64,000 bases of DNA from Escherichia coli (GTDB taxonomy: Bacteria; Pseudomonadota; Gammaproteobacteria; Enterobacterales; Enterobacteriaceae): assembly GCF_024223415.1 (NCBI RefSeq), contig NZ_CP100500.1; one strand, 5' to 3'. A program made the translations under genes and the position numbers. The notes below the pieces were generated by a model. That model was not told the origin of the DNA. It made no database searches and saw only the letters and a list, made by a program, of their open reading frames with translations. Numbering within the stretch: the first letter of the stretch is position 1; each line of letters starts with the position of its first letter. Below, piece after piece: positions 6,544-62,116 of this stretch.

Positions 6544-6692
6544 CATTTTATCTGCCTGTACGGCAGTGAACATGGTGGGCGGGTGGAGTATGTTACCAGT
6601 GAATTTCTAAGCTGCCTGTACGGCAGTGAACGTTTGCTGCAACCGCTAGCCAAGACGGTAGGTTTTTCTAAGCTGCCTGTACGGCAGTGAAC
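6544..6692 (-). CRISPR. Orphan type I-F CRISPR mini-array: 3 repeats, 2 spacers, no cas genes in the window
   Basis: Minus-strand repeat GTTCACTGCCGTACAGGCAGCTTAGAAA (the E. coli I-F repeat) at 6604-6631 and 6665-6692 plus a degenerate terminal copy at 6544-6571; spacers of 32-33 nt. Confidence 0.85.
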
Positions 6693-44514: not shown

Positions 44515-44640
44515 GCTGCGTACATTCGCCGGGGGGGTTTGTAGGTCTGATAAGACGCGCCAGCGTCGCATCAGACATCAGCACGGTGCCTGTGCCGGAT
44601 GCGGCGTGGACGCCTTATCCGGCCTACATAGTGCATAAAT
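44515..44640. repeat. REP/BIME palindromic elements
   Basis: GCCTGATGCGACGCTGGCGCGTCTTATCAGGCCTAC-type and GCCGGATGCGGCGTGGACGCCTTATCCGGCCTACA-type units between artM and artJ. Confidence 0.65.
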
Positions 44641-58867: not shown

Positions 58868-60553
58868 GTGAATATAAACGTCGCCGAATTGTTAAATGGG
58901 AATTACATTCTGTTATTATTTGTGGTCCTCGCGCTTGGGCTATGTCTCGGAAAGTTACGACTTGGTTCGATCCAACTGGGTAATTCCATTGGCGTTTTAG
59001 TCGTATCGCTGTTATTAGGCCAACAACATTTCAGCATTAACACCGATGCGCTTAATCTTGGCTTTATGCTGTTTATTTTCTGCGTCGGGGTCGAAGCCGG
59101 ACCGAACTTTTTTTCCATTTTTTTTCGCGATGGGAAAAATTACCTAATGTTAGCACTGGTGATGGTTGGCAGTGCGCTGGTGATCGCCTTAGGGTTAGGT
59201 AAGCTGTTTGGCTGGGATATTGGCCTGACGGCCGGTATGTTAGCAGGCTCTATGACGTCGACACCGGTTCTGGTCGGTGCTGGCGATACACTGCGTCATT
59301 CCGGCATGGAAAGCAGGCAGCTCTCACTGGCACTGGATAATCTGAGCCTCGGGTATGCCTTAACCTATTTAATCGGTCTGGTGAGTTTGATTGTTGGTGC
59401 GCGTTACTTGCCGAAATTGCAGCATCAGGACTTACAGACCAGCGCCCAGCAAATCGCCCGCGAACGTGGCCTGGACACTGATGCCAACCGTAAGGTTTAT
59501 TTACCGGTGATCCGCGCCTATCGCGTCGGCCCGGAGCTGGTGGCCTGGACCGACGGCAAAAATCTGCGTGAACTGGGTATTTATCGACAAACCGGCTGCT
59601 ACATTGAACGTATTCGACGTAACGGGATTCTGGCAAATCCAGACGGTGATGCCGTGCTACAAATGGGCGATGAAATAGCGTTGGTAGGCTATCCCGACGC
59701 CCATGCCCGACTCGATCCCAGCTTCCGTAACGGCAAAGAAGTTTTCGATCGTGACCTTCTCGACATGCGTATCGTCACTGAAGAAGTGGTCGTTAAAAAC
59801 CATAACGCCGTTGGCAAACGTCTCGCACAACTGAAGTTGACCGATCACGGTTGCTTCCTTAACCGCGTTATTCGTAGCCAGATTGAGATGCCGATAGATG
59901 ACAACGTCGTGCTTAACAAAGGTGACGTTTTACAAGTCAGCGGCGATGCCCGCCGCGTAAAAACCATCGCCGATCGCATCGGCTTTATCTCGATTCACAG
60001 CCAGGTCACTGACTTGCTGGCATTCTGCGCCTTCTTTGTTATTGGGCTGATGATCGGGATGATCACATTCCAGTTCAGCACATTCAGTTTCGGCATGGGG
60101 AACGCTGCCGGGTTGTTATTCGCCGGAATTATGCTGGGCTTTATGCGTGCTAACCACCCGACCTTCGGTTACATTCCGCAGGGTGCATTAAGCATGGTGA
60201 AAGAGTTCGGCTTAATGGTGTTTATGGCAGGCGTTGGTCTGAGCGCCGGTAGCGGTATTAATAACGGTCTGGGCGCGATTGGCGGTCAGATGTTGATTGC
60301 CGGATTGATTGTCAGTCTTGTGCCCGTGGTTATCTGTTTCTTGTTCGGTGCTTATGTATTGCGAATGAACCGCGCACTGTTGTTCGGCGCAATGATGGGC
60401 GCACGCACCTGCGCGCCGGCAATGGAGATCATCAGTGATACAGCTCGCAGTAACATCCCGGCGCTGGGCTATGCGGGCACCTATGCAATCGCCAACGTCC
60501 TGCTGACGCTGGCAGGGACAATCATCGTCATGGTATGGCCAGGATTAGGATAA
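58868..60553 (+). CDS. ybjL: Putative transport protein YbjL (AAE family)
   Basis: 561 aa with two membrane domains and central soluble domains. Confidence 0.85.
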
Positions 60554-60885
60554 AACTGAAGTTGCCCTGAAAATGAAATTTTTTTGCACAACCGCAGAAC
60601 TTTTCCGCAGGGCATCAGTCTTAATTAGTGCCACTGCTTTTCTTTGATGTCCCCATTTTGTGGAGCCCATCAACCCCGCCATTTCGGTTCAAGGTTGGTG
60701 GGTTTTTTGTTATCTAAATCCCCAAAATCTCCATTCTCTCCCCTGTCCAAAGCCTTATCTGACTGTCCTCTCTTCCAGAAAATCATTCTTTTTCGTACAA
60801 AGAACAAATAGTTATTGAGAAGCTTATTTAAAAACCTGAACAAAATCGGTAATATTCCTGGCTTTGCAATACACAGATTTTTTAT

Positions 60886-61437
60886 ATGGATATTAACGAG
60901 CTAAAAGAGTGCCTTCATCTGGAAGTCATTGGTAAAAGTAGGAAATTCACATGGCGTAAAGTCATTGTAAGGGCGATGAAACATCGGCGCGTTCGTTACT
61001 TATTCTGGTGGCGTATCGCTAAATACGGCCATGAGAAAGGTGGTTACTGGCGGAAAATTGCTGGCAAAATTGAGCGAAAAATCCTTGATAGTTATGACGT
61101 TAAAATCCCATTAGTCGTTGATATAGGCAAAGGGTTGGATATTTCATACTTAACGGGAGTTGTTATCGGTCATAACGTAAAAATTGGTGAGAATTGTTCC
61201 ATCAAACCCGGCGTAACCATCGGCCTACGTGGCCATTTTGACGAAATGGATATACAGATTGGCAACAATGTCACCATTGGTTGCAACGCCTCCATTCTGG
61301 GCGGCAAAGTCTATATTGGAGATAACGTCACGATAGGTGCACATGCATTGGTTTTGCATGATATCCCAGAAAACTCCATTTTTATCAATAAAATAGAATA
61401 CGAGATTATCCCGAAAAAAGTTATAGCCGAAATGTGA
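60886..61437 (+). CDS. Hexapeptide-repeat (left-handed beta-helix) O-acetyltransferase, CysE/WcaB-like, accessory
   Basis: Hexapeptide repeats VVIGHNVKIGENCSIKPGVTIGLRG...IGNNVTIGCNASILGGKVYIGDNVTIGAHALV; AT-rich composition. Confidence 0.7.
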   Translation: MDINELKECLHLEVIGKSRKFTWRKVIVRAMKHRRVRYLFWWRIAKYGHEKGGYWRKIAGKIERKILDSYDVKIPLVVDIGKGLDISYLTGVVIGHNVKIGENCSIKPGVTIGLRGHFDEMDIQIGNNVTIGCNASILGGKVYIGDNVTIGAHALVLHDIPENSIFINKIEYEIIPKKVIAEM

Positions 61438-61496
61438 TCGCCAGTGAGATGATTAGCGCTATCGAGGGAGGTGTTGCGTCTTATCGACCTCTGTAG

Positions 61497-62033
61497 CTAC
61501 CCAGCAACCCTCTCAACCATCCTCAAAATCTCCTCGCGCGATAACGGCTTACGGTCGGTGACAAAATGCAGCGTCATCCCCTCAATAAACGCATCAAGCG
61601 CGCGGGCGGTTCCGGGTTCAAACCATTGTTCGAGCGTTTGCTGACTGCGCTGCATCCAGTTTTGCATTACCGTTTTTAATAGCGGTTTTCGGCTAGCCAG
61701 CGCGTAGAGCTGGTACATCAGCTCCATGTTATCCGGCGTTGCAACCTGTGAGCTGTAGATCATATCGGTGATAGCCTGGCATGCGCCTTGAGCATCACTA
61801 ACATCGCTAAAAAATGCCTGATATTGCCGGGACATGATCTCAGTAAAACTGCTGAACGCCTCCAGCAACAACTCATCAATTCCTGAAAAATAGTAGGTCA
61901 TCGATCCCAACGGTACCCCGGCAAGGGTAGCAATTTTGCGGTGCGTAACAGCATGTATTCCGTAAAGTTTCACCGCCTCCAGCGTGGCCTGGATAATTTT
62001 TTCTCGCCGTTGCGGATCGTTAGCGCGACGCAT
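61497..62033 (-). CDS. rcdA: TetR-family transcriptional regulator RcdA
   Basis: Start trimmed to [35 protein letters not shown] (178 aa); TetR helix-turn-helix. Confidence 0.8.
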
Positions 62034-62116
62034 GTCATTTCCTCTGTCTGCAATTGTGTACAAATGTACACAACCTTGCTAATGTTGTCTTCCCTCTTCT
62101 TATTTTGACGTGATCT

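Follow-up and report, generated by a model that had tools for sequence, protein, structure and literature searches.

We identified an orphan gene within a known prophage attachment site in a 64,000-nucleotide (nt) stretch of Escherichia coli DNA (hereafter the window; contig NZ_CP100500.1 of assembly GCF_024223415.1). The gene encodes a hexapeptide-repeat protein of 183 amino acids and lies between ybjL and rcdA, in an AT-rich islet that begins at the 3′ end of the small RNA (sRNA) gene rybB. It is very likely a phage accessory gene left at the rybB attachment (att) site of P2-like prophages. We consider it highly likely that the protein has the fold of a serine acetyltransferase (SAT) but is not one, and the RefSeq label "serine acetyltransferase" is very probably wrong, as it is contradicted by the active-site sequence. 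The reading that we favor as a whole, an orphaned prophage accessory gene acting on the cell envelope without classical O-acetylation, has in our estimate an even chance of being correct.

The gap between ybjL (58868–60553, + strand) and rcdA (61497–62063, − strand) is 943 bp long in this genome and 174 bp in K-12, where the gene is absent. Identity with K-12 runs to TTTTTTGTTATCTAAA, ending at position 60718, and is followed by a 778-bp insert and then by the rcdA stop codon. The guanine-plus-cytosine (GC) content of the islet is 40.6% and deviates from its surroundings (51.4% in ybjL and 50.6% in rcdA), in agreement with the low GC content noted in the preliminary description of this DNA. 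According to the open reading frame (ORF) list of the window, the gene is the only sizeable ORF in the gap. The preliminary description was thus right that it is a lone ORF, although the gap also holds rybB, which had been overlooked together with the att site. The features of the locus are as follows.

60633–60711, + strand: rybB, the gene for the sigma-E-dependent sRNA RybB (Rfam RF00110, 104.1 bits against a gathering score of 40, model positions 1–79 of 79).
60703–60718, unstranded: left half of the attB core of P2-like (Felsduovirus) prophages, TTTTTTGTTATCTAAA, from K-12 attB compared with Rb-23 attL/attR; K-12 continues with ACTTAT.
60719–61496, + strand: AT-rich islet, 778 bp replacing 9 bp (ACTTATCTA) of K-12 in the alignment.
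60719–60885, + strand: 5′ flank of the coding sequence (CDS), 167 bp, unique to islet-bearing genomes.
60886–61437, + strand: CDS of the SAT-fold hexapeptide-repeat protein, 183 aa (PHROG 2154; RefSeq WP_000353913.1, "serine acetyltransferase").
61438–61496, unstranded: 3′ flank to the rcdA stop codon, 59 bp, holding a degenerate att-like stretch and a weak hairpin (z −0.8).
61473–61485: degenerate att-like stretch, GTTGCGTCTTATC, at the right end of the islet.

The first base of the islet is 8 nt past the 3′ end of rybB. At the same spot, strain Rb-23 carries a complete P2-like prophage in the order ybjL-rybB-attL-ogr...int-attR-rcdA. Comparison of the K-12 attB with the attL and attR of Rb-23 gave an att core of approximately 22 nt, TTTTTTGTT[AT/GC]CT[A/G]AAA[C/T]TTAT, which starts in the T-run of the RybB terminator, and the left junction of the islet lies inside this core. 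The presence of foreign DNA in the ybjL-rcdA gap is explained by the 3′ end of rybB being an attachment site of P2-like prophages. In 109 E. coli genomes, rybB has been described as an integration hotspot of Felsduovirus prophages that takes a single occupant (PMC10121019), and the myovirus prophage NC-MV of strain NC101 is located between ybjL and rcdA (PMC12803456).

At the right end of the islet, GTTGCGTCTTATC is similar to the phage-type att core GTTGCCTGAAATTTATC when a gap inside it is allowed; it may be a degenerate attR, though it is too short to judge. We also observed a 15-nt near-repeat, ATCC[C/T]CAAAATCTCC, with 14 of 15 positions matching, at the left end of the islet (60718–60732) and in the 3′ end of rcdA (61519–61533); its score was equalled by 1 of 300 shuffles, and it may represent microhomology used in an insertion or deletion event. 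Apart from this near-repeat, no terminal inverted or direct repeats of the transposable-element type were found at the islet.

The RybB terminator, a hairpin with a T-run (60703–60708) just left of the islet, is strong (−22.7 kcal/mol, z −3.5). The hairpin at 60662–60706 was rejected as a terminator of ybjL, since Rfam identifies it as that of RybB. The rybB sequence is identical to K-12 apart from a G at 60698, where K-12 and Rb-23 have A, so that a U-A pair of the terminator stem becomes U·G. This G allele was discarded as a marker of the islet: it is carried by 11/11 islet loci, but also by up to 535/5416 genomes.

The islet was present at ≥99% identity in 70 of 5,426 complete E. coli genomes (about 1.3%), and always at the ybjL-rcdA locus. 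The whole 1,251-bp stretch from ybjL through the islet to rcdA was colinear in 67 of these 70, the right junction was unbroken in all 70, and the 5′ flank was found in precisely the same 70 genomes and in no others of the set. Carriers include O145:H28 Shiga toxin-producing E. coli, an O78 strain, and poultry, pig, and human isolates. The assembly collection had the exact protein in 10,357 blocks, and each of the ten distinct contexts that were read was again ybjL-rcdA, including those of two genomes of approximately 4.3 Mb that bear the insertion sequence IS1. Across ten loci, the islet differed by 0–2 single-nucleotide polymorphisms per 762 bp, and ybjL by up to 19 per 1,686 bp. In one islet-bearing genome of 4.37 Mb, IS1 truncates ybjI and the gene order downstream is altered (locus L019, 8440–9391); in this it resembles the reduced genomes of Shigella-like strains. 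The 1,251-bp query matched 6,557 places in 5,429 records, which is, as a rough count, about 1,100 extra places. These fit the presence, in many genomes, of a large insert that splits the rybB-rcdA gap, as the Rb-23 prophage does.

The hexapeptide-repeat assignment was confirmed by Pfam Hexapep (PF00132, E = 1.4e-14, 53.5 bits against a cut-off of 27). Just one family, PHROG 2154, of "unknown function," matched over the full length (E = 5e-69, residues 2–177 on profile positions 5–181 of 185). The protein comprises two domains.

60886–61095, + strand: N-terminal basic four-helix domain, residues 1–70.
61096–61395, + strand: left-handed beta-helix (hexapeptide-repeat) domain, residues ~71–170.

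The N-terminal 70 residues contain 19 K/R and 7 D/E, with an isoelectric point of 10.4. The basic character stated in the preliminary description therefore holds, but this part is not an added extension: it is a family-conserved four-helix domain with the most distinctive invariants of the family (F21, W23, and F40-W41-(W42)-R43). In a single-chain AlphaFold2 (AF2) model built from an 85-sequence alignment, the predicted four-helix domain superposes on the helical domain of serine acetyltransferases, and as modeled the protein has the SAT-type arrangement of a helical N-domain and a left-handed beta-helix. In an earlier AF2 model, built from 40 sequences, the beta-helix was poor (pLDDT, the predicted local distance difference test score, 68.8); this model gave no significant Foldseek match to the PDB and was replaced by the 85-sequence model. 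A Foldseek search against the BFVD viral structures gave no match at E ≤ 0.001, and the PADLOC anti-phage defense models gave 0 families at E ≤ 1.

These likenesses raise the question of whether the label "serine acetyltransferase" is right. The best matches of the protein among curated models and PDB sequences are indeed SATs, and its fold is SAT-like. The scores, however, are far under the curated cut-offs: 81.5 bits against 150 for the NCBIfam EpsC-type SAT (NF041874), 71.5 against 210.65 for CysE (TIGR01172), and 44.6 against 397 for PRK11132 / NF008349. The models for the polysaccharide O-acetyltransferases WcaB (TIGR04016, 55 against 194.65; NF007564, 55.1 against 196) and WbbJ (39 against 243) likewise scored far under their cut-offs. 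In HMMER alignments with solved SATs, the motifs V-D-I-H-P, L-D-H-A-T-G, and D-R-H-P correspond to V-K-I-P-L, I-S-Y-L-T-G, and E-M-D-I of the window protein, and true SATs in the same search have IEIHP, IDHG, and KRHP where it has KIPL, SY, and MDI. D143 of E. coli CysE, aligned to K73, is the Asp of the catalytic pair, and H158, aligned to Y88, is the general base. Asp157, Arg192, and His193 of CysE, the serine-binding residues, stand opposite S87 and M-D. The protein also ends in AEM and lacks the Ile tail with which the C-terminus of CysE binds CysK. The idea that it is a genuine serine O-acetyltransferase, which would boost the supply of O-acetylserine and cysteine, is therefore very improbable, and a housekeeping role as cysE does not agree with these results. 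Of the two findings that would have refuted the preliminary description, presence of the gene at this site in K-12 and a housekeeping role such as cysE, neither was thus obtained.

The replaced positions were then compared among 114 homologues from the protein search.

61102–61104, + strand: codon of K73, position of the catalytic-pair Asp; E or D in 92/114 homologues.
61147–61149, + strand: codon of Y88, position of the general-base His; His in 98/114 homologues and Tyr in 16.

Among the 98 homologues with His, 92 have an Asp or Glu partner, and the consensus E...H of the PHROG 2154 profile aligns onto the D...H of SATs. In all 16 Tyr-type homologues, the partner position is Lys, Thr, Val, or Ile. 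These 16 comprise every homologue at least 55% identical to the query and one at 51%, and include abundant phage and phage-plasmid copies. By this alignment, the window gene falls in a subclade that has jointly lost the two catalytic-pair residues. The ratio of nonsynonymous to synonymous substitution rates (dN/dS) was 0.04–0.09 between the window gene and phage copies, with synonymous sites saturated, and 0.03–0.07 among phage copies in the beta-helix part. Judged from these ratios, the Tyr-type subclade is shown to be under long-term purifying selection and not decaying. With Lys and Tyr in place of the Asp/Glu-His pair, ordinary O-acetylation is doubtful, which weakens the standard O-acetyltransferase activity that had been proposed in the preliminary description.

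We then examined the gene context of the relatives. The closest phage and phage-plasmid copies are 55–76% identical to the window protein, and those at 70–76% identity lie tail-to-tail with a tail-fiber assembly gene (tfa). In 25/28 IMG/VR loci, the tfa match either shares 12 nt with the end of the homologue match or begins 11 nt past it; in pECO-b75, the 3′ ends of the homologue CDS and the convergent tfa CDS overlap by 36 nt (overlapping pairs: L006 2680–3806; L030–L055). The same tail-to-tail arrangement was found in 47-kb and approximately 97-kb phage-plasmids, a P2-like tail module, Hafnia phage yong2, Citrobacter phiNP, and a Mu-like Salmonella prophage. In lambdoid prophages, including those at the lambda site by ybhB-bioA, the homologue lies after J-lom-stf-tfa, and no other intact gene stands between it and the chromosomal junction. 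Phage ESSI2_ev015, which is P2-like, has a His-type homologue directly after int and a tRNA-type attP; once integrated, this homologue would come first inside attL, in the orientation that the window gene has relative to rybB. Both the tfa-side and the att-side positions are held by His-type as well as Tyr-type members. Single-gene islets of the PHROG 2154 family recur: lone His-type members were observed in Citrobacter between genes for a copA-like ATPase and a cueR-like MerR protein (locus L058, 5001–5552), and between genes for IalB-domain and SdiA-regulated-domain proteins (locus L061, 5001–5549).

The window gene shares its length, two-domain build, and low GC content with the PHROG 2154 genes of vB_EcoM-613R2, 47-kb phage-plasmids of the pECO-b75 type, yong2, and phiNP (where it is named "sat"), and with the closest of these copies also the Tyr-type replacement in the active site. 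It differs from them in having no phage neighbors or tfa, in its unique flanks, and in saturated synonymous sites. The "sacF" gene of the P1-like JL22 is a more distant relative (39% identity). The foreign composition of the islet, its position in the att core, and the frequent location of the phage family at the extreme ends of prophages are the reasons for which we favor an orphaned prophage accessory ("moron"-type) gene in the rybB attachment site, which would probably have remained after the rest of the prophage was deleted. A comparable case exists in E. coli K-12, where the cryptic P2 remnant ogrK-yegZ adjoins cyaR, an sRNA gene whose 3′ end is the attachment site. In both cases the P2-like attachment is at the 3′ end of an sRNA gene, with rybB in the role of cyaR; the ogrK-yegZ remnant, however, keeps recognizable phage genes, whereas the islet keeps the cargo gene alone.

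For the function, we propose that the product is a SAT-fold protein, predicted to be of the trimer type, with its basic four-helix domain and left-handed beta-helix. As with other phage-borne hexapeptide transferases, its cytoplasmic target would be a conserved precursor of envelope glycans or some other common metabolite, and its action may alter what superinfecting phages or the host see. A role in lysogenic conversion or exclusion is favored because the relatives adjoin receptor-binding genes, and the link to phage receptors suggested in the preliminary description fits their tail-to-tail arrangement with tail-fiber assembly genes. The proposed modification of O-antigen or capsule did not hold up in the same way: no evidence ties the gene to either, and its carriers differ in serogroup (O145:H28, O78, and others), which speaks against an O-type-specific acceptor. 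As the islet spans serogroups, a conserved acceptor is preferred over a particular O-antigen. As the Asp/Glu-His pair is lost, the protein may transfer its group without a general base, like base-less N-acyltransferases, or act through binding alone. Taken by itself, modification of the envelope or a receptor by this protein is plausible from the gene context, but in our view less likely than not.

WcaB/WbbJ-type cytoplasmic polysaccharide O-acetyltransferases are likewise small hexapeptide-repeat proteins of similar length, and His-type PHROG 2154 members share their E/D...H arrangement, but the window gene lies outside a polysaccharide cluster and its subclade lacks the His. NeuO, the O-acetyltransferase of K1 polysialic acid, is encoded on prophage CUS-3 beside the tailspike gene and is a precedent for phage-borne hexapeptide transferases. 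The window protein is structurally less similar to NeuO than to SATs and lacks the catalytic His, and a search of the window gene for a NeuO-like 5′ heptanucleotide phase-variation repeat tract found none.

Several observations weigh against the favored reading. No phage gene or integrase flanks the window copy, and a search of the 3′ end of the islet for a tfa remnant found none. The islet with its flanks had no match in the phage collection or in IMG/VR (searched with a 26-mer in the latter), where only homologues of the CDS at about 76% identity were found, so that the remnant origin is derived from position and family only. The islet copies vary too little to show selection since the gene became chromosomal. 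A consensus scan of the 5′ flank found no sigma-70 promoter upstream of the CDS, and no Shine-Dalgarno sequence precedes it. No acceptor is known for any member of PHROG 2154, and in the literature on the family, which includes two papers listing such genes, the genes appear only as "serine acetyltransferase" without a tested function; the JL22 paper states that it is unknown why the gene is present. Lastly, the loss of both catalytic-pair residues, as read from the alignment, could mean that there is no transferase activity at all.

This last point leads to a non-catalytic pseudo-enzyme, which would work by binding, for example by sequestering a lipid-linked or nucleotide-sugar intermediate or acetyl-CoA, or would block a host or phage protein. 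We regard it as a minority possibility. A more specific version, in which the Tyr-type subclade consists of beta-helix binders or inhibitors that no longer transfer acetyl groups, for example masking the receptor glycan of the neighboring tail fiber or preventing its synthesis, and in which E. coli lineages have retained the lone copy downstream of the sigma-E-controlled rybB, domesticated for superinfection exclusion or an envelope-stress function, seems quite unlikely to us. With regard to such a function, the gene is co-oriented with rybB, and it is a speculation that read-through of the RybB terminator would put it under sigma-E control, though the terminator is strong.

The missing expression signals instead suit a silent, selectively neutral chromosomal relic that is intact merely through its youth. 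The position of the gene behind the strong RybB terminator points the same way, and so does the near identity of the islet copies, which makes constraint after acquisition not measurable. On the other hand, the gene is intact in 70/70 complete genomes, with a CDS annotation in every row listed, and one exact protein dominates the 10,357 assembly blocks across several lineages. The phage copies, which are strongly constrained, have equally AT-rich leaders that also lack a Shine-Dalgarno sequence, and the independent lone copies in Citrobacter suggest repeated retention. A silent relic is accordingly an unlikely explanation in our view.

The gene itself is already in RefSeq, its family is PHROG 2154, and its location has been published as a prophage hotspot. 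The seemingly new elements are the recognition of a single-gene relic that occupies the rybB site, an active site that contradicts the SAT label, and the joint loss of both catalytic residues in the closest clade under purifying selection. On a small scale, the islet exemplifies how cargo of a prophage can survive the loss of the phage at an attachment site in an sRNA gene, and does not overturn current understanding. Sequences that carry the gene under the SAT label run into the thousands, across E. coli, Shigella-like genomes, phages, and phage-plasmids. If the protein does alter a conserved envelope structure, it would represent a widespread, unrecognized lysogenic-conversion or phage-exclusion factor tied to tail-fiber modules, and the coupled loss of the catalytic pair under purifying selection offers a clean test case for a hexapeptide transferase changing or losing its chemistry.

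Elsewhere in the window, Rfam detected two CRISPR-DR4 (RF01317) direct repeats on the − strand at 6604–6631 and 6665–6692 (50 bits each, 61 nt start to start), and a match to naRNA4 (nucleoid-associated noncoding RNA 4, RF02564), also on the − strand, at 44544–44624 with 78.5 bits.
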